From the IMG/VR virus record IMGVR_UViG_2706794665_000010: a stretch of DNA of 7,405 nt; one strand, 5' to 3'. Made by a program: the position numbers and the translations under genes. Origin of the DNA: a virus (Duplodnaviria; Heunggongvirae; Uroviricota; Caudoviricetes). The notes under the pieces are model-generated. The model was not told the origin of the DNA and ran no database searches. It worked only from the letters and a program-made list of their open reading frames with translations. Below, one piece after another: positions 1 to 7,405 of this stretch (the stretch's first letter is position 1; every line of letters starts with the position of its first letter).

Positions 1-2
1 GG

Positions 3-98
3 GGAATATCTCCCCGGCAGCCTTCAGGGAAAAATATCATCAGATGGCTGCTTAAAAAAAGAACAAATGGTAGTGTCCGCTATTGCCAGTACACCTCA
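3..98. repeat. Left copy of a perfect inverted repeat (partner at 7310-7405); covers the upstream region and first ~10 codons of ORF 67-297
   Basis: Reverse complement of 7310-7405 matches 3-98 base for base by manual comparison. Bases 1-2 (gg) would pair with sequence beyond 7405, so the repeat probably runs off-window. Confidence 0.85.
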
Positions 99-297
99 TC
101 CATCACCGAAAAAAATTGGCTTTTACACCATTGGCGATAAAAGCATTTACCTGTATGACCTACGCCGCATGGATGAAATCATGGAGGCTCTTGATAATCG
201 TTCGTCGATGGATTGGTGTGTTGCTGTTCATGATATGAATGCAGGGTTTGATGAAAAGATTTTGTTCCCCTCATCAGTTGAAAGCACTGCGGGTTAA
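67..297 (+). CDS. Hypothetical small protein (76 aa)
   Basis: Open frame ending in TAA at 295-297. No clear Shine-Dalgarno upstream (A-rich). Start and first codons lie inside the inverted repeat. Not recognised. Confidence 0.4.
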   Translation: MVVSAIASTPHPSPKKIGFYTIGDKSIYLYDLRRMDEIMEALDNRSSMDWCVAVHDMNAGFDEKILFPSSVESTAG

Positions 298-307
298 GGA
301 GTAACAC

Positions 308-475
308 ATGACCACTATTACCAAAGAACGTATTGAATTGTTCATTAAAAACCCGCTTGAAAACGGGCTTACCCGTGGTGAACAAATGGAACTGGCACGG
401 ATTGCGCTGGCATCGCTGGAAGCAGAGCCGGTTGTGTTCTGGTTTGAAAAATATCAAGAAGGGGCTACGGCATGA
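308..475 (+). CDS. Hypothetical small protein (55 aa), paralogous to the next ORF
   Basis: Strong SD AAGGAG at 296-301, 6 nt before ATG 308. Stop TGA 473-475 overlaps the next ATG (ATGA). Shares the N-terminus MTTITKERI and the motif [10 protein letters not shown] with ORF 472-816 ([19 protein letters not shown]). Confidence 0.55.
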
Positions 476-816
476 CGACTTTTACCAGAGAGCAGTTAAT
501 AGCTCACGCAGAGGAGACTATTGAAGCACAGAGACTGTGCATACCGGGCACAATCGACCATGACATCATCCGCACATATAAGATGGATATTGCTGTTCTG
601 GAAATCGCACTGGTATCGCTGGCAGCAGAGCCAGCCGGTAAATTGCATGAATACAAACCAGTGGGATATCAGCGTCTGGTCGATGAGTTAACCATGCTGG
701 TAAAGCAGTTAACCTGGCAACTGAGGAAAGCGAAGCCAGACTGCAAATTACCGGATAAGGCGATGAGTTATCTGGAGCGGAACGGACTGATAAGCGTGGA
801 GGATATTTTACGATGA
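472..816 (+). CDS. Hypothetical protein (114 aa), longer paralog of ORF 308-475
   Basis: ATGA start/stop overlap at both ends (472-475 and 813-816). GAAGGGG SD-like element upstream. Protein-like composition. Not recognised. Confidence 0.55.
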
Positions 817-896
817 CCTGGCCTGAAGCATTAACAACGGTAGGAATTGCGATGGCGGTGGCGCTGGTGGTGTATTCGATTTGCCGCTGGGGATAA
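813..896 (+). CDS. Small hydrophobic peptide (27 aa, [27 protein letters not shown]), predicted single transmembrane helix
   Basis: GGAGGA SD at 797-802, about 10 nt before ATG 813. ATG overlaps the stop of the upstream ORF. Too short for the supplied ORF track; translated by hand. Confidence 0.4.
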
Positions 897-1107
897 AAAC
901 GGTTTGCGGGAAAAGGAGAGTTAAGTAGAATTGCAGCGGGTGCTTGAGGCTATCTGTCTCAGGCATGAACACCAAAAGGCAGATAGAGAAAAGCCCCAGT
1001 TAACATTACGCGTCCGGCAAGACGCTTAACATTAATCTGAGGCTCAATCTATGAACGGCAAATCTAGGTTAGCCTCTTACGTGCCGAAAGGCAAGGAGAA
1101 GCAGGCT

Positions 1108-1263
1108 ATGAAGCAGCAAAAGGCGATGTTAATCGCCCTGATCGTCATCTGTTTAACCGTCATAGTGACGGCACTGGTAACGAGGAAAGACCTCTGCGAG
1201 GTACGAATTCGAACCGGCCAGACGGAGGTCGCTGTCTTCACAGCTTACGAACCTGAGGAGTAA
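1108..1263 (+). CDS. hokD: Hok/Gef-family type I toxin (51 aa), closest to HokD/RelF as recalled
   Basis: Translation MKQQKAMLIALIVICLTVIVTALVTRKDLCEVRIRTGQTEVAVFTAYEPEE has the Hok family signature (hydrophobic N-terminal helix, conserved Cys, TGQTEVAVF). SD AAGGAGAA at 1093-1100. The in-frame ATG at 1051 would give a 70-aa form but is not preferred. Confidence 0.9.
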   Translation: MKQQKAMLIALIVICLTVIVTALVTRKDLCEVRIRTGQTEVAVFTAYEPEE

Positions 1264-1332
1264 GAGACCAGGCGGGGGAGAAATCCCTCGCCACCTCTGA
1301 TGGGTCAGGCATCCTCAATGCACCCACACTTA

Positions 1333-1364
1333 ACCCGCTTCGGCGGGTTTTTGTTTTTATTTTC
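1333..1364 (+). terminator. Rho-independent terminator downstream of hok
   Basis: ACCCGC-TTCG-GCGGGT hairpin (6-bp stem, tetraloop) followed by TTTTTGTTTTTATTTT. Confidence 0.7.
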
Positions 1365-1371
1365 AACGCGT

Positions 1372-1401
1372 TTGAAGTTTTAGATGGTGCCGGAATAGAA
1401 T
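1372..1401 (+). promoter_or_regulatory. Candidate sigma70 promoter
   Basis: TTGAAG (1372-1377), 18-nt spacer, TAGAAT (1396-1401), about 80 nt upstream of ATG 1484. Consensus match by eye only. Confidence 0.25.
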
Positions 1402-1483
1402 CAAAAATACTTAAGTAGCGCGCAGGGAGAAGAGGGATGGACCCCGAACAGGGGAGTGCTATTTATCTGGAAGGATTCTGTTG

Positions 1484-1867
1484 ATGAAAATCGAAGAATT
1501 ACGTGAAATTTTTAGTGAAGATGGCCTCTATACTGTGCGCGTTGAGAATGGCGCTATTGTCAGCCACTGCCTTCCAGACTACACAATTCTGATANNNNNN
1601 NNNNNNNNNNNNNNNNNNNNNNNNNNNNNNNNNNNNNNNNNNNNNNNNNNNNNNNNNNNNNNNNNNNNNNNNNNNNNNNNNNNNNNNNNNNNNNNNNNNN
1701 NNNNNNNNNNNNNNNNNNNNNNNNNNNNNNNNNNNNNNNNNNNNNNNNNNNNNNNNNNNNNNNNNNNNNNNNNNNNNNNNNNNNNNNNNNNNNNNNNNNN
1801 NNNNNNNNNNNNNNNNNNNNNNNNNNNNNNNNNNNNNNNNNNNNNNNNNNNNNNNNNCAGGCCGTGA
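1484..1867 (+). CDS. Hypothetical protein (about 127 aa); roughly two thirds of it is masked
   Basis: SD GGAAGGA at 1470-1476 before ATG 1484. Visible N-terminus MKIEELREIFSEDGLYTVRVENGAIVSHCLPDYTILI. The frame reaches TGA at 1865-1867 only if the N-run 1595-1857 is open and length-preserving. Confidence 0.4.
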   Translation: MKIEELREIFSEDGLYTVRVENGAIVSHCLPDYTILIXXXXXXXXXXXXXXXXXXXXXXXXXXXXXXXXXXXXXXXXXXXXXXXXXXXXXXXXXXXXXXXXXXXXXXXXXXXXXXXXXXXXXXXXRP

Positions 1868-1871
1868 ATCA

Positions 1872-2052
1872 ATGTCAGCATTCCATAACGGCAGAATACT
1901 GGTGGAGCCGGAACCAAAAAGCATGCGTAATCTGCCGTCCGGGGTCGTTCCTGCCGCTCGCCAGCCGCTGGTGGAAGACAAAACATTGCTGCCGTTTTTC
2001 AGTAACGCACGGGTGATTCGTGCTGCTGGTGGTGCTGGTGCATTGTCTGACT
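1872..2052 (+). CDS. 5' portion of an ORF (MSAFHNGRILVEPEPKSMRNLPSGVVPAARQPLVEDKTLLPFF...) running into mask 2053-2304; possibly the N-terminal part of the downstream YbcO-like protein
   Basis: ATG 5 nt after the upstream stop; protein-like frame for 60 codons. The frame differs from the coding frame after the mask, so this is either a separate gene, a frameshift, or a mask-length artefact. Confidence 0.35.
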
Positions 2053-2304
2053 NNNNNNNNNNNNNNNNNNNNNNNNNNNNNNNNNNNNNNNNNNNNNNNN
2101 NNNNNNNNNNNNNNNNNNNNNNNNNNNNNNNNNNNNNNNNNNNNNNNNNNNNNNNNNNNNNNNNNNNNNNNNNNNNNNNNNNNNNNNNNNNNNNNNNNNN
2201 NNNNNNNNNNNNNNNNNNNNNNNNNNNNNNNNNNNNNNNNNNNNNNNNNNNNNNNNNNNNNNNNNNNNNNNNNNNNNNNNNNNNNNNNNNNNNNNNNNNN
2301 NNNN

Positions 2305-2866
2305 ATCCTGGTGGGCGGTCCGCAATCAGGTGGCGGACGCGCTACCGGAAGCGGTATTACGTCGTTCGCTGGGGTTGCGTGCGGAAAAAATTCGCTCTGT
2401 GTACAGTGAAAGCGACATCATACCGGGAGAGCAGACAGCCACCAGCATACTGAAGCAGCGCACAAAAAATATTGCGTTACTGCCTCACGTCCACCAGCAA
2501 CAGAACCCACCACAGGAAAAGACGGTGGTCAGCATTGCCGTTGATCCGGAGTCACCGGCTCAGTATCTCCAGCGCCAGAAATCACAACGGGAAGAGATGC
2601 CTGTATACACGCGCTGGGTAAAAACGCAGAAATGCATGACGTGTGGCAATCAGGCAGATGATCCGCATCACATCATTGGTCATGGACTGGGAGGGATGGG
2701 AACAAAGGCTGATGATTTGTTTGTTATTCCGTTATGCCGTAAATGCCGTAACGAACTACATGCCGGAGTAAAAGATTTTGAAGAGAAACACGGCAGTCAG
2801 CTGTTGTTGCTGATTCGTTTTTTAATGCACGCGAGAAATTCGGGTGTTCTGAAGTGGAAAGCATAA
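2305..2866 (+). CDS. C-terminal portion of a nin-region protein with a YbcO-like (DUF1364-type) zinc-binding putative nuclease domain; possibly DUF968/YdfU family. 5' end masked.
   Basis: Frame is open from the first unmasked base to TAA 2864-2866. Motif CMTCG...DPHHIIGHGLGGMGTKADDLFVIPLCRKCRNELH parallels the recalled YbcO pattern H-x-I...GxGTK..DL...CxxC. Stop abuts the rusA start. Confidence 0.75.
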
Positions 2867-3247
2867 ATGACCGAGCGCATAGAATTTGTTTTACCTTACC
2901 CGCCGACGGTGAACACTTACTGGCGTCGTCGTGGCAGCACATATTTTGTATCAAAAGCCGGGGAGCGTTATCGCCGGGCAGTGGCGCTTATTGTTCGCCA
3001 GCAGCGGCTGAAATTAAGCCTGTCCGGAAGGTTGGCAATAAAAATTATTGCAGAACCACCGGATAAGCGCCGCCGTGACCTGGACAATATTCTGAAAGCG
3101 CCGCTGGATGCGCTGACGCATGCGGGGTTGCTAATGGACGATGAGCAGTTTGATGAAATCAATATCGTTCGTGCTCAGCCAGTATCTGGTGGACGTCTGG
3201 GGGTGAAGATTTATCCCATAATGCTTGAAGGGCAGGTCAAAAAATGA
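2867..3247 (+). CDS. rusA: RusA-family Holliday junction resolvase (126 aa)
   Basis: Similar in length and motifs to recalled E. coli RusA (PxxRRRDLDN, LDDxQ, GGRL). Sits in the canonical position just upstream of Q. Stop overlaps the Q start (ATGA). Confidence 0.88.
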   Translation: MTERIEFVLPYPPTVNTYWRRRGSTYFVSKAGERYRRAVALIVRQQRLKLSLSGRLAIKIIAEPPDKRRRDLDNILKAPLDALTHAGLLMDDEQFDEINIVRAQPVSGGRLGVKIYPIMLEGQVKK

Positions 3248-4098
3248 AACTGGAAGATTTACCGAAATACTACTCCCCAAAATCCCCCGGCCTGACTGAT
3301 GCATCGGCCTCAACGTCGAAAGATGCGCTGAGTATCACTGATGTGATGGCCGCGCAGGGCATGACACAGAATCGGGCTGAGATGGGGGTTTCTGCGTTCC
3401 TTGGGAAAATGGGCATTAGTATGAATGACAGAGAGCGGGCAACAGAATTGCTGACAGAATATGCACTCAGTCGGTGTGATCGCGTGGCGGCGTTAAGAAA
3501 ACTCCCGGCAGAAATAAAACCGGCAGTGATGCGTATTATGGCTTCGTATGCGTTTGAAGATTATGCCCGTAGCGCGGCGAGCAAAAAACAGTGCCCTTGT
3601 TGCTATGGGGAAAAATTTATTGAAAGCGTAGTTTTTACAAACAAGGTCCAGTATCCGGATGGTAAGCCGCCGGTATGGGCAAAGTGTACGAAAGGTGTGT
3701 ATCCGTCTTACTGGGAAGAATGGAAAAAAGTCAGGGAGGTGGTAAAAGTTGCCTGTCCGGAGTGTGGCGGAAAGGGTGAGGTTTCCACCGCCTGTAAGGA
3801 TTGCCGTGGGCGTGGTGTCGCCATTCATCGTGAAGAGTCGGTAAAACGTGGTATGCCTGTTATCAGAGACTGCCAGCGTTGTGGTGGTCGTGGCTATGAA
3901 AGACTACCATCAACGGAGGCATTTAATGCTATATGCGAGGTGACAAACCAGATAACACGCGCGTCATGGGAAAAAACAGTTAAGAAATTCTATGATGCGC
4001 TGGTGACTCGGTTTGATATTGAAGAAGCATGGGCTGAGCGGCAGTTAAAAAAGGTAACTAGGTTGATTTTTCCGGAATCTGTGGTAAATTCGTCATAA
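3244..4098 (+). CDS. Lambdoid late-gene antiterminator Q (284 aa), zinc-finger type
   Basis: N-terminus MKLEDLPKYYSPKSPGL resembles recalled QuuD-type Q proteins. Cys clusters CPCC, CPECGGKG, CKDCRGRG and CQRCGGRG. Followed by a PR'-like promoter and short terminated leader. Confidence 0.88.
   Translation: MKLEDLPKYYSPKSPGLTDASASTSKDALSITDVMAAQGMTQNRAEMGVSAFLGKMGISMNDRERATELLTEYALSRCDRVAALRKLPAEIKPAVMRIMASYAFEDYARSAASKKQCPCCYGEKFIESVVFTNKVQYPDGKPPVWAKCTKGVYPSYWEEWKKVREVVKVACPECGGKGEVSTACKDCRGRGVAIHREESVKRGMPVIRDCQRCGGRGYERLPSTEAFNAICEVTNQITRASWEKTVKKFYDALVTRFDIEEAWAERQLKKVTRLIFPESVVNSS
4063..4090 (+). promoter_or_regulatory. PR'-like late promoter (copy 1) overlapping the 3' end of Q
   Basis: TTGATT (4063-4068), 16-nt spacer, extended -10 TGgTAAATT (4082-4090). 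The TAAATT -10 with upstream TG matches lambda PR' as recalled. Predicted start near 4097-4099. Confidence 0.5.
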
Positions 4099-4101
4099 CT
4101 A

Positions 4102-4163
4102 TGGGCGTTTTATGCCTGACGTTAGAAGAGTTTCTACAACCCGCCGCCGAGCGGGTTTTTTAT
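4102..4163 (+). repeat. 62-nt block (initial transcribed region plus tR') identical to 4950-5011
   Basis: Manual alignment: identical over 62 nt, while the adjacent Q 3' sequence is clearly diverged between the two copies. Confidence 0.85.
4139..4162 (+). terminator. tR'-like rho-independent terminator (copy 1), about 60 nt downstream of the predicted PR' start
   Basis: CCCGC-cgccga-GCGGG hairpin followed by TTTTTTA. Confidence 0.6.
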
Positions 4164-4200
4164 TGCGGAATTAATTACGGACCGTTATTATTCTGCTCCC

Positions 4201-4276
4201 GGCCCTTTAGCTCAGTGGTGAGAGCGAGCGACTCATAATCGCCAGGTCGCTGGTTCAAATCCAGCAAGGGCCACCA
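4201..4276 (+). tRNA. tRNA with CAU anticodon, most like tRNA-Ile2 (ileX/ileZ type); elongator Met not excluded
   Basis: Hand-folded cloverleaf: acceptor GGCCCTT/AAGGGCC, D-stem GCTC/GAGC, anticodon loop CTCATAA, T-arm GCTGG-TTCAAAT-CCAGC, encoded CCA. C4-G69 and C5-G68 are consistent with recalled tRNA-Ile2 determinants. Confidence 0.85.
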
Positions 4277-4572
4277 TCACAAACCGCCATTAGCTTATCA
4301 GGAAGAGCAGACGACACGATNNNNNNNNNNNNNNNNNNNNNNNNNNNNNNNNNNNNNNNNNNNNNNNNNNNNNNNNNNNNNNNNNNNNNNNNNNNNNNNN
4401 NNNNNNNNNNNNNNNNNNNNNNNNNNNNNNNNNNNNNNNNNNNNNNNNNNNNNNNNNNNNNNNNNNNNNNNNNNNNNNNNNNNNNNNNNNNNNNNNNNNN
4501 NNNNNNNNNNNNNNNNNNNNNNNNNNNNNNNNNNNNNNNNNNNNNNNNNNNNNNNNNNNNNNNNNNNNNNNT

Positions 4573-4647
4573 TACGATACGTTGGTGGTTCGGTTTGACA
4601 TTGAAGAGGCATGGGCGGAGCGGCAGTTAAAGAGGGTAACGCGATAG
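4573..4647 (+). pseudogene. 3' remnant of a second, diverged Q gene (visible part YDTLVVRFDIEEAWAERQLKRVTR*)
   Basis: Aligns to the Q C-terminus (YDALVTRFDIEEAWAERQLKKVTR) with substitutions, a roughly 10-nt insertion and an earlier in-frame TAG. At most about 300 nt lies between tRNA copy 1 and this point, so a full Q cannot fit. Confidence 0.6.
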
Positions 4648-4652
4648 TGTTG

Positions 4653-4680
4653 TTGATTTTTCCCGAATCTGTGGTAAATT
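4653..4680 (+). promoter_or_regulatory. PR'-like late promoter (copy 2)
   Basis: TTGATT (4653-4658), 16-nt spacer, TGgTAAATT (4672-4680); same elements as copy 1. Followed by mask 4685-4949 where copy 1 has only about 8 nt. Confidence 0.4.
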
Positions 4681-4949
4681 TGCTNNNNNNNNNNNNNNNN
4701 NNNNNNNNNNNNNNNNNNNNNNNNNNNNNNNNNNNNNNNNNNNNNNNNNNNNNNNNNNNNNNNNNNNNNNNNNNNNNNNNNNNNNNNNNNNNNNNNNNNN
4801 NNNNNNNNNNNNNNNNNNNNNNNNNNNNNNNNNNNNNNNNNNNNNNNNNNNNNNNNNNNNNNNNNNNNNNNNNNNNNNNNNNNNNNNNNNNNNNNNNNNN
4901 NNNNNNNNNNNNNNNNNNNNNNNNNNNNNNNNNNNNNNNNNNNNNNNNN

Positions 4950-5011
4950 TGGGCGTTTTATGCCTGACGTTAGAAGAGTTTCTACAACCCGCCGCCGAGC
5001 GGGTTTTTTAT
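4950..5011 (+). repeat. Second copy of the 62-nt initial-transcribed-region/tR' block, including the terminator hairpin at 4988-5009
   Basis: Identical to 4102-4163; hairpin CCCGC/GCGGG followed by a T-run. Confidence 0.85.
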
Positions 5012-5131
5012 GACTGAAATCGCGTCAGTACAGTAAACGCGCTGGTGGCGGTGAATACCTGTCTTTCAGCTTGCTGGCTTTTTCGACAAGAGTTATTGGT
5101 GTGTCACGTTAACCGGAAAAGGGAAAAAGAC

Positions 5132-5329
5132 ATGCTAAAACAGCAGGATATGACAGAAACCGCCAGAGTGGTGTTTAATGAATTAAGCGTTACCGAACCG
5201 GCGACAGTCGGGGAGATAGCGCAGAATACTTACCTTTCACGCGAACGCTGCCAGTTAATACTGACCCAGCTGGTTATGGCGGGTCTGGCAGACTATCAGT
5301 TCGGTTGTTACAGACGCCTTCCGCAGTGA
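5132..5329 (+). CDS. Small putative winged-helix DNA-binding protein (65 aa)
   Basis: GA-rich SD-like region (AAGGGAAAAAG) before ATG 5132. The segment TVGEIAQNTYLSRERCQLILTQLVMAGLA fits an Lrp/MarR-like helix-turn-helix pattern. Followed by an intrinsic terminator. The ATG at 5045 is not preferred. Confidence 0.5.
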   Translation: MLKQQDMTETARVVFNELSVTEPATVGEIAQNTYLSRERCQLILTQLVMAGLADYQFGCYRRLPQ

Positions 5330-5343
5330 AGGCTTTTTTATTT
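5316..5343 (+). terminator. Rho-independent terminator overlapping the stop of ORF 5132-5329
   Basis: GCCTTC-cgcagt-GAAGGC hairpin followed by TTTTTTATTT. Confidence 0.6.
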
Positions 5344-5356
5344 GTGGTAAATGGGC

Positions 5357-5387
5357 GGCTGGTGGGTGTTAGGGGCACCCACCAGCC
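5357..5387. other. Perfect 12-bp inverted repeat with a 7-nt spacer (GGCTGGTGGGTG-ttagggg-CACCCACCAGCC)
   Basis: Seen directly; all 12 pairs are Watson-Crick. No T-run follows on either strand, so it is not a canonical terminator. Confidence 0.6.
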
Positions 5388-5487
5388 ATCTGCTCATGCG
5401 TTGGGTTCACAAGCAAACCTCAGGCCCACTGCTTTGCGCAAAAGCAGAATGAGCCTATCAGAGACAGGCTTAATGATCCATGCTTAA

Positions 5488-5507
5488 TACTGTAAAAATA
5501 TCCAGTT
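5488..5507. promoter_or_regulatory. LexA (SOS) box-like palindrome TACTGTAAAAATATCCAGTT
   Basis: Fits the CTG-N10-CAG core and most of the recalled consensus TACTGTATATATATACAGTA. Lies 1 nt before mask 5509-5774, upstream of the visible methyltransferase body. Confidence 0.35.
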
Positions 5508-5774
5508 GNNNNNNNNNNNNNNNNNNNNNNNNNNNNNNNNNNNNNNNNNNNNNNNNNNNNNNNNNNNNNNNNNNNNNNNNNNNNNNNNNNNNNNNNNNNN
5601 NNNNNNNNNNNNNNNNNNNNNNNNNNNNNNNNNNNNNNNNNNNNNNNNNNNNNNNNNNNNNNNNNNNNNNNNNNNNNNNNNNNNNNNNNNNNNNNNNNNN
5701 NNNNNNNNNNNNNNNNNNNNNNNNNNNNNNNNNNNNNNNNNNNNNNNNNNNNNNNNNNNNNNNNNNNNNNNNNN

Positions 5775-6560
5775 ATGATGCGTGAACGCTTCAGTGTGCT
5801 GAACCATATTATCTGGGCGAAGCCGTCCGGACGCTGGAACGGATGCAACAAGGAAAGCCTGCGGGCGTATTTCCCCGCCACAGAGCGCATTCTGTTCGCG
5901 GAACATTATCAGGGGCCGTATCGTCCGAAAGATGCCGGGTATGCGGCGAAGGGCAGTGCACTGAAACAGCATGTGATGGCCCCGCTGATTTCTTACTTTC
6001 GTGATGCGCGAGCTGCCCTGGGGATAACGGCAAAACAGATTGCAGATGCCACAGGAAAGAAAAACATGGTGTCGCACTGGTTCAGTGCCGGTCAGTGGCA
6101 GTTGCCGAATGAAAGCGATTATCTGAAATTACAGGCGCTGTTTGCCCGGGTGGCAGAAGAGAAGCATCGGCGTGGTGAACTGGAAAAGCTCCACCACCAG
6201 CTGGTGGATACGTATACCTCACTGAACCGGCAGTATGCGGAGCTGCTGAGTGAATATAAACATCTGCGGCGGTATTTTGGCGTGACGGTGCAGGTGCCGT
6301 ATACCGATGTGTGGACGCATAAACCGGTGCAGTTCTATCCCGGGAAACATCCGTGCGAAAAACCGGCAGAAATGCTGCAGCAGATAATCAGCGCTAGCAG
6401 TCGTCCGGGTGACCTGATTGCAGATTTTTTCATGGGGTTGGGTTCGACAGTGAAAGCGGCACTGGCGCTCGGGCGTCGTGCAATTGGCGTTGAGCTGGAG
6501 ACTGAACGTTTTGAGCAGACGGTTCGGGAAGTACAGGATTTAGTCAGCCAGAACGGATGA
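5775..6560 (+). CDS. DNA methyltransferase, beta-class amino-MTase (N6-adenine or N4-cytosine), C-terminal about 260 aa; 5' end masked
   Basis: HPCEKP followed by DLIADFFMGLGSTVKAALALGRRAIGVE parallels the recalled YhdJ arrangement (HPTQKP ... DPFAGSGTT...IGIE). The expected N-terminal DPPY-type motif would fall in mask 5509-5774. Stop TGA 6558-6560. Confidence 0.8.
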   Translation: MMRERFSVLNHIIWAKPSGRWNGCNKESLRAYFPATERILFAEHYQGPYRPKDAGYAAKGSALKQHVMAPLISYFRDARAALGITAKQIADATGKKNMVSHWFSAGQWQLPNESDYLKLQALFARVAEEKHRRGELEKLHHQLVDTYTSLNRQYAELLSEYKHLRRYFGVTVQVPYTDVWTHKPVQFYPGKHPCEKPAEMLQQIISASSRPGDLIADFFMGLGSTVKAALALGRRAIGVELETERFEQTVREVQDLVSQNG

Positions 6561-6600
6561 TATTGAAGAATTAATTACGCGTCGTTATTATGCGGCTCCC

Positions 6601-6676
6601 GGCCCTTTAGCTCAGTGGTGAGAGCGAGCGACTCATAATCGCCAGGTCGCTGGTTCAAATCCAGCAAGGGCCACCA
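6601..6676 (+). tRNA. Second copy of the tRNA(CAU), 76/76 identical to 4201-4276
   Basis: Same cloverleaf. Flanks are similar but clearly diverged (upstream roughly 85% over about 35 nt, downstream diverging after about 30 nt). Confidence 0.85.
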
Positions 6677-7101
6677 TCACATACCGCCATTAGCTCATCA
6701 GGAAAGAGCGCCAGCCTNNNNNNNNNNNNNNNNNNNNNNNNNNNNNNNNNNNNNNNNNNNNNNNNNNNNNNNNNNNNNNNNNNNNNNNNNNNNNNNNNNN
6801 NNNNNNNNNNNNNNNNNNNNNNNNNNNNNNNNNNNNNNNNNNNNNNNNNNNNNNNNNNNNNNNNNNNNNNNNNNNNNNNNNNNNNNNNNNNNNNNNNNNN
6901 NNNNNNNNNNNNNNNNNNNNNNNNNNNNNNNNNNNNNNNNNNNNNNNNNNNNNNNNNNNNNNNNNNNNNNNNNNNNNGAATCCCCCTGTGCGGAGGGGCA
7001 ATCAGCGAGTAGGTATATGGGATAATCGCGGATTCAGGTGCTGGTACTGAATTCACCGGGAGGCACCCGGCATCATGCAATGGCACATAGCGCCACTCTC
7101 C

Positions 7102-7126
7102 AGCCCTCTCCGGAGGGGCTTTTCTG
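7102..7126 (+). terminator. Candidate rho-independent terminator
   Basis: AGCCCT-ctccgga-GGGGCT hairpin (includes one G-U pair) followed by TTTTCT. A weaker candidate than the others. Confidence 0.35.
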
Positions 7127-7309
7127 TGCCGGATACATCACAGTTTCTGGAACCTTAGGTACTACAGTATCAGTCAGGGTGCTATATTTTCAGATGTGAT
7201 GAAAGCCTGTCAGCAGGCAGGGCGTATCGGAAATGACCCAGTAGAGAAAACGTTGACTCAGATACCGGTGCTGAGTTACCGGGAAACCGGCATCACATGA
7301 CCGCTATCC

Positions 7310-7405
7310 TGAGGTGTACTGGCAATAGCGGACACTACCATTTGTTCTTTTTTTAAGCAGCCATCTGATGATATTTTTCCCTGAAGGCTGCCGGGGAGAT
7401 ATTCC
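7310..7405. repeat. Right copy of the perfect inverted repeat (partner 3-98); on the minus strand it encodes the same start MVVSAIASTP fused to a different 11-codon tail
   Basis: Manual reverse-complement comparison. Minus-strand translation from 7339 gives MVVSAIASTPQDSGHVMPVSR then stop. Confidence 0.85.

Follow-up and report, generated by a model that had tools for sequence, protein, structure and literature searches.

The closest described relatives of the locus analyzed here are the tRNA genes that lambdoid phages carry downstream of the antiterminator gene Q. The tRNA gene cluster ileZ-argN-argO has been annotated in Shiga toxin (Stx) phages and other lambdoid phages for decades. In the Stx2-converting phage Stx2a_WGPS8, for example, ileZ, argN, and argO lie directly 5' of stx2A and stx2B. 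The same slot after Q in SfI, Sf6, ST64T, and P21 is occupied by different tRNA species (i.e., tRNA-Asn and tRNA-Thr), with the same proposed role of serving codons that the phage overuses (PMC3636060). Here, we analyzed a 7,405-nucleotide (nt) stretch of lambdoid prophage DNA (IMG/VR record IMGVR_UViG_2706794665_000010; hereafter, the window), which carries two tRNA genes with the anticodon CAU, both on the + strand, at positions 4201-4276 (copy 1) and 6601-6676 (copy 2). The best joint explanation, to which we assign a probability of about 0.9, is that both genes are ileZ copies of the ileZ-argN-argO cluster located in two prophage modules, that their identity is kept by selection, and that their adjacency in the record probably stems from scaffolding. 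Copy 1 would belong to a module with the order Q-tR'-ileZ-decayed argN-argO (module A), where tR' is the late terminator, and copy 2 to one with the order Q-tR'-orf65-methylase-ileZ-argN-argO (module B).

ARAGORN calls exactly two tRNA genes in the window, each with the anticodon CAT, and the Rfam tRNA model RF00005 matches each of them with 72.5 bits (E = 7e-15; gathering score, 29). An earlier interpretation made without database searches (hereafter, the sequence-only reading) had noted that the placement of the two genes parallels that of ileZ-argN-argO in Stx phages. The likeness goes beyond a parallel. Both copies are identical at 76/76 positions to the gene named ileZ in Stx2a_WGPS8 and to the gene annotated as "tRNA-Ile, codon recognized: AUA" in Stx2 phage 24B, and given this identity, the window genes are ileZ itself (the names ileZ, argN, and argO are taken here from phage records and general knowledge). 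Compared with the cluster of Stx and other lambdoid prophages (933W, VT2-Sakai, 24B, and Stx2a_WGPS8), the window displays the same ileZ, the same 7-nt spacing to argN, the same upstream -35/-10 block, and the same slot downstream of Q, the late promoter PR', and terminators; in addition, the visible 34 nt of its argN are identical to those of its relatives. In contrast to the Stx-phage cluster, neither stx genes nor late genes follow tRNA copy 2, where the remnant instead ends in the insertion sequence IS600. Moreover, the window Q belongs to the PF03589 type and not to that of 933W/24B, orf65 and a methylase gene separate tR' from the tRNA genes in module B, and argN in module A is decayed. 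The placement after Q and tR' that the sequence-only reading had described applies to copy 1, which directly follows Q, a PR'-like promoter, and tR', but not to copy 2, which lies 1.6 kb past the second tR', after orf65 and the DNA methylase gene.

Since ARAGORN reads the anticodon only, it labels both genes as tRNA-Met, and "tRNA-Met" is also listed for the ileZ-type gene in some phage records and in PMC7946995. Furthermore, unmodified tRNA-Ile2(CAU) is charged with Met (PMC1635315). These observations could be taken to mean that the two genes encode elongator tRNA-Met reading AUG. However, alignment with K-12 tRNAs that have this anticodon shows 70/76 (92%) identity of the window tRNA to ileY and clearly lower similarity to the elongators metT/metU and the initiator metZ; for metT/metU, the lower similarity spans the acceptor, anticodon, and T stems. 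The acceptor stem carries C4-G69 and C5-G68 (i.e., CC at positions 4-5 and GG at positions 68-69), as in ileX/ileY, whereas metT/metU have U4-A69 and A5-U68. According to the literature, these two pairs are the dominant identity elements by which E. coli TilS, the lysidine synthetase acting on C34, recognizes tRNA-Ile2 (PMC1635315, PMC11947777, and PMC12514573). Initiator tRNA-fMet is recognizable by mismatched C1xA72, by A11-U24, and by an anticodon stem containing three G-C pairs, G29-31/C39-41 (PMC1635315); the window tRNA shows none of these and has G1-C72, C11-G24, and the anticodon stem AGCGA/UCGCC. Finally, all inspected E. coli records in RefSeq (PGAP) that contain this exact sequence label it tRNA-Ile. 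Judged by these determinants, both genes are tRNA-Ile2 (ileZ) and not tRNA-Met, and an elongator identity is highly improbable.

Relative to the host genes ileX/ileY, the window ileZ has the same anticodon loop and the same acceptor-stem determinants for TilS, but it is borne by prophages in multiple copies (up to 12 places per genome) and differs from ileY by six substitutions (G20, G26, A27, C43, A44, and A59), which are the same in both copies and conserved across phages. Four of them, G26/A27/C43/A44 versus A26/G27/U43/U44 in the host, place an A27.C43 mismatch where the host has a G27.U43 wobble (window positions 4226-4244 in copy 1). The anticodon loop and the stem pairs from 28-42 to 31-39 (4/5 pairs) are the same in ileZ and in host ileX/ileY.

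The two window copies are identical to each other (76/76) and are embedded in a repeat of 144 nt (4161-4304 and 6561-6704) with 94% identity. The nine differences within this repeat are all confined to the 68 flank positions and spare the tRNA, a distribution with a chance probability of (68/144)^9 = 0.0012. Beyond the repeat limits, the upstream flanks are unrelated (24/61 matches) and the downstream sequences diverge after position 4304. The description of two identical tRNA(CAU) genes with diverged flanks is hence accurate. It had been taken to imply either selection on both copies or gene conversion, and the population data favor the first of these. Among 5426 closed E. coli genomes, 3057 contain the ileZ 76-mer, at 7527 places in total, and in 2776 of 3068 records the best copy reaches at least 99% identity. 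Likewise, in a collection of 116 loci from IMG/VR and other sources, 113 of 120 ileZ copies are identical, while the 25 nt immediately upstream occur in at least a dozen variants, and the flanks of ileZ diverge by 7-13% across lambdoid prophages. This near-invariance points to strong purifying selection on a working tRNA across the whole prophage population. Any two ileZ copies from different prophages would therefore match, so that local gene conversion is unnecessary as an explanation for the identity of the two window copies.

The surroundings of both genes are interrupted by runs of N, which the sequence-only reading had treated as masks and had correctly placed 44 nt past copy 1 (at 4321) and 41 nt past copy 2 (at 6718). 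The source record is a gapped draft scaffold of Shigella sonnei (GCA_001252695.1, contig CWSW01000180.1) with the same N runs as the window. The 186-amino acid (aa) product that begins immediately 3' of the second N run has an exact match in WP_114012050.1 ("DUF968 domain-containing protein, partial [Shigella sonnei]"), which lies on one contig. Since this protein was already "partial" at the gap edge, the gaps were present in the deposited sequence at annotation. In addition, two sibling S. sonnei scaffolds (loci L129 and L130) have N runs of 211-265 at other positions. The partial gap-edge protein in the NCBI record and these similar runs elsewhere rule out masking, and the runs are gaps of the deposited scaffold, not concealed sequence of known length. 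The window thus consists of seven contigs (1-1594, 1858-2052, 2305-4320, 4572-4684, 4950-5508, 5775-6717, and 6978-7405) whose joins are estimated gaps, and the two tRNA copies are on separate contigs. Taken as a whole, it is a gapped S. sonnei scaffold built from prophage remnants, with IS600 at both bounds.

We estimated the true size of each gap from relatives, as the distance between exact 25-nt anchors on both sides. Gap 1 (1595-1857; 263 N) corresponds to 304 nt in relatives, gap 2 (2053-2304; 252 N) to 244 nt, gap 5 (5509-5774; 266 N) to 244 nt, and gap 6 (6718-6977; 260 N) to 245 nt. Gap 4 (4685-4949; 265 N) corresponds to only 7 nt in 17/17 relatives, and for gap 3 (4321-4571; 251 N), no relative has both anchors in order. 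The lengths of the N runs accordingly differ from the lengths hidden in relatives. Each of the six runs measures 251-266 N, and for three of them the relatives have exactly 244-245 nt instead. In the sibling scaffolds, one 8-nt island lies between two N runs.

Homology to relatives indicates what two of these gaps may conceal. In relatives with the module B arrangement (methylase-ileZ; loci L001, L004, L108, and L049), ARAGORN finds a tRNA-Arg(tcg) gene that starts 8 nt past ileZ, followed by a tRNA-Arg(tct) gene. The window retains the first 34 nt of this argN, tRNA-Arg(UCG), at 6684-6717 (+ strand), which are identical to positions 7314-7347 of L108, where ARAGORN calls tRNA-Arg(tcg); the remainder falls in gap 6. 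Both L108 and L049 match the window with 100% identity over 5775-6717 and resume this match at 6978 (L108 to 7405 and L049 to 7310), and at the gap 6 site they hold 245 nt that comprise the 3' part of argN, all of argO(UCU), and then about 110 nt. Relatives with the module A arrangement (Q-tR'-ileZ; L002, L005, L022, and L108) carry, according to ARAGORN, a single tRNA-Arg(tct) gene about 100 nt past ileZ. In L022, which is 99.5% identical to window 2305-4320, this gene is located 101 nt past ileZ. The spacer of module A is a decayed argN that retains both acceptor halves but has a damaged D arm and a destroyed anticodon arm. Its 5' part lies in the window at 4284-4320 (+ strand), where it is recognized by alignment with intact argN as a pseudo-tRNA that ARAGORN does not call. 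By analogy, gap 3 may hide the rest of the decayed argN together with argO(UCU) at about 4377-4453. The sequence of relatives thus gives good support to further tRNA genes in the gaps, namely argN plus argO past copy 2 and argO past copy 1. A guess to this effect in the sequence-only reading is supported by this homology, although the genes are not readable in the record itself.

Whether the two ileZ copies truly lie 2.4 kb apart is a separate matter. The interval between them contains three gaps and a 113-nt island (4572-4684, + strand), which comprises the 3' end of a third Q allele (Q_B, with its stop at 4645-4647) and a PR' copy at 4653-4680. This island is 100% identical to the 3' end of Q in E. 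coli loci L001 and L004 and differs both from the complete window Q (allele Q_A) and from Q of the sibling S. sonnei scaffolds. In the siblings L129 and L130, the 6.4-6.5 kb between IS600 ends equal to those of the window accommodate only one module, with the order rusA-Q(273 aa)-tR'-orf65-methylase-ileZ. Similarly, contig L022, which contains no N and has IS600 at both ends, matches window 1-4320 at 99.5-99.9% identity and carries module A only once. All relatives with two or three ileZ genes (L108, L049, L042, L126, and L127) have N in the interval between two ileZ copies, and ten gap-free 16-kb contexts of orf65, drawn from E. coli in general and including no closed S. sonnei genome, contain at most one ileZ each. 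With window 4201-5140 as the query, no ileZ was found within about 1 kb of the Q_B-tR'-orf65 piece in the 5426 closed genomes covered, all of them of E. coli and none of S. sonnei. Moreover, the exact tandem arrangement was not found in any gap-free sequence among those closed genomes, phage records, and IMG/VR.

The left 4 kb is nearly identical in module A and module B loci, so that a short-read assembler would collapse it and could string the two divergent right arms in series. On the combined basis of the island allele, the size of gap 4, the single-module siblings, the N between copies, the null result in closed genomes, and this collapsible left 4 kb, we consider the 2.4-kb adjacency to be probably a scaffolding artefact, and the tandem arrangement implied by the sequence-only reading rests on scaffold gaps. 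A true tandem of two partial late-control modules, produced by prophage recombination and kept identical by selection or gene conversion, is the less likely explanation. In its favor, the scaffolder presumably had read-pair support, the scaffolds with two or three ileZ modules named above come from other isolates, and the scaffold of locus L128 has two rusA-Q segments with an IS21 helper (IstB) gene between them. Yet the join on which it depends runs through all three gaps and the island, with 265 N in gap 4 where 17/17 relatives have 7 nt and with gap 3 anchors that occur together in no relative; it is present in 0/5426 closed E. coli genomes, and gene conversion would be superfluous given the population-wide invariance of ileZ.

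With regard to function, the supply of tRNAs for rare codons is the classical explanation for phage tRNAs (PMC3636060 and PMC7946995). We compared codon usage between 26 late genes of a related intact prophage (E. coli O121, L122), 10 nin/early genes of the same prophage, and 42 core genes of K-12 (L123). Per 1000 codons, AUA, AGA, AGG, and CGG occur 5.9, 4.1, 4.0, and 16.8 times in the late genes and 8.8, 6.2, 6.7, and 17.7 times in the nin/early genes, versus 2.4, 1.2, 0.7, and 3.5 times in the core genes. The four codons are thus enriched about 2.5- to 10-fold in this comparison of one related prophage with one 50-kb host sample. The enrichment of CGG is about five-fold (17 versus 3.5 per 1000) and matches argN(UCG). 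These data support the classical rare-codon role of the cluster, and the AUA rationale offered by the sequence-only reading agrees with the late-gene value of 5.9 versus 2.4 in K-12. In the mechanism that we propose, the cluster would be transcribed from its own conserved promoter (pT) 5' of ileZ as well as by Q-antiterminated read-through from PR'. Host TilS would then turn C34 into lysidine by means of C4-G69 and C5-G68, and isoleucyl-tRNA synthetase (IleRS) would charge the ileZ tRNA, allowing the rare AUA codon to be decoded. The two other tRNAs of the cluster may add decoding of CGA/CGG (argN, UCG) and of AGA/AGG (argO, UCU).

Phage tRNAs can counter anticodon nucleases in other systems, and the sequence-only reading had raised the replacement of host tRNAs targeted by such nucleases. 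On that account, the prophage tRNAs would serve mainly as replacements or decoys against defence systems or colicins and not as rare-codon suppliers. The six ileZ positions that differ from host ileY (20, 26, 27, 43, 44, and 59) and are conserved across phages would fit, as would argN(UCG), a type of tRNA-Arg isoacceptor that, to our knowledge, E. coli K-12 lacks. The usual cleavage sites, however, speak against the idea. Here, ileZ matches host ileX/ileY in the anticodon loop and at stem pairs 28-42 to 31-39, just as argO matches host argU in the anticodon loop; neither tRNA thus carries an escape change at these sites. We also know of no nuclease that targets tRNA-Ile2, and the three anticodons of the cluster match exactly the codons enriched in the prophage. 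A mainly anti-defence role is therefore very unlikely, and the rare-codon role remains our preferred reading.

Several points weigh against the joint explanation, in addition to the confinement of the codon comparison to one prophage and one host sample. As regards the adjacency, multi-module scaffolds recur in several isolates. As regards identity, the A27.C43 mismatch replaces a host G27.U43 pair and may have an effect on TilS or IleRS. Because a G.U wobble and a protonated A.C pair are isosteric, what is conserved at 27-43 may be the geometry. Expression, lysidine formation, and charging with Ile are predicted from sequence determinants and from what is known of the host tRNA-Ile2. Furthermore, codon adaptation reportedly does not differ between lambdoid phages that carry these three tRNAs and those that lack them (PMC4631060), and the remnant, having lost its late genes, would now benefit only the host, if anything.

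Between its IS600 ends, the window represents the nin/late-control region of a lambdoid prophage. The terminal 96 nt of IS600 form the left bound at 3-98 (- strand) and, as a perfect inverted repeat, the right bound at 7310-7405 (+ strand); matching ends, annotated with "IS3-like element IS600 family transposase", occur in E. coli records by the thousands. Because both arms are the same IS600 end, the remnant is bounded by two inverted IS600 copies. From left to right, the window contains small nin-region open reading frames (ORFs), hok/sok, a DUF968 gene, rusA (2867-3247), Q, a PR'-like promoter, a terminator, and tRNA copy 1, followed by the Q fragment with its PR' copy, a second terminator region (4950-5018), orf65, the 3' part of a methyltransferase gene, tRNA copy 2, and a region of the STnc100 small RNA (sRNA) family. 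The hok/sok type I toxin-antitoxin system is located at 938-1263, with an Rfam sok match at 938-1113 (112 bits) that overlaps a HokD-like hok ORF at 1108-1263. The Rfam match to the STnc100 sRNA family (6949-7131; 69.8 bits) lies 3' of the tRNA cluster, with its 5' end entering gap 6, and a terminator-like hairpin is present at 7102-7120 within the match region.

The antiterminator gene Q (allele Q_A; 3244-4098, + strand) encodes 284 aa, matches Pfam PF03589 (Antiterm), and has an exact protein counterpart in "antitermination protein Q [Shigella sonnei]". Between it and the 273-aa Q of L129 and L130, the difference is an 8-nt deletion near the 3' end (window 4050-4098), by which the frame is shifted and the stop moved into the PR' region. 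In other S. sonnei scaffolds (L128, 3561-3567; L108, 2769-2770), Q is broken at the equivalent of window 3646, beside an IS21 helper (IstB) gene, which suggests a Q::IS21 insertion in some lineages. The putative PR'-like late promoter, as read from the sequence (TTGATT, 16-nt spacer, TAAATT; 4063-4090, + strand), overlaps the end of Q. In the second Q fragment, conservation of its 29-nt block reaches 97%, compared with 85% for the adjoining coding sequence, and since the site is only 8/12 to consensus, it was not listed by the promoter scan. The tR'-like intrinsic terminator at 4138-4165 (+ strand) has a 7-bp G+C-rich stem followed by a T run, and its second copy at 4986-5013 (+ strand) was recognized both as a repeat of the copy 1 region and by a terminator scan. 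A putative tRNA promoter (pT) precedes each ileZ on the + strand: TTGCGG, a 17-nt spacer, and TATTAT at 4163-4191 for copy 1, and the homologous TTGAAG, a 17-nt spacer, and TATTAT at 6563-6591 for copy 2 (9/12 to consensus). The pT block ends 9 nt before the tRNA, its -10 element TATTAT is kept in all upstream flank variants, and the equivalent site in phage 24B is annotated as "pT; putative tRNA promoter".

The small conserved ORF orf65 (65 codons; 5132-5329, + strand) of the orf65-methylase-tRNA module is found downstream of several unrelated Q families. Indeed, this block lies 3' of at least three unrelated antiterminator families (PF03589, PF06323, and PF06530/PF06576; contexts L134-L143), and it thereby behaves as a mobile mosaic module among lambdoid prophages. 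The 3' part of the N6/N4 DNA methyltransferase gene (Pfam PF01555) occupies 5775-6560 (+ strand). The methylase is called with 261 aa in S. sonnei assemblies versus 349-352 aa in E. coli, and in a gap-free Logan contig (L131, 497-1555), its 5' part is a separate 65-aa ORF; with its 5' part split off, the gene looks frameshifted (i.e., a pseudogene) in S. sonnei. The prophage methyltransferase described in PMC10810198 was considered as a counterpart and ruled out, as it is a different, MT-A70 enzyme.

Collectively, the element in the window is already known as a textbook and very common prophage tRNA cluster, and its only unusual aspect, the presence of two copies at a distance of 2.4 kb, is most likely a product of the draft scaffold. 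The locus shows that anticodon-only callers mislabel ileZ as tRNA-Met, that N runs in draft scaffolds should not be taken as masks of known length, and that tandem prophage modules in short-read scaffolds of IS-rich Shigella are untrustworthy without long reads. As for the biology of the cluster, there is a slim chance that the six substitutions of ileZ, invariant across thousands of prophages, confer a property that host ileX/ileY lack, such as resistance to a toxin that recognizes the anticodon stem or elbow of tRNAs, or altered TilS/IleRS kinetics to the advantage of phage translation. If this were true, the ileZ-argN-argO triad would be more than a rare-codon supplement.

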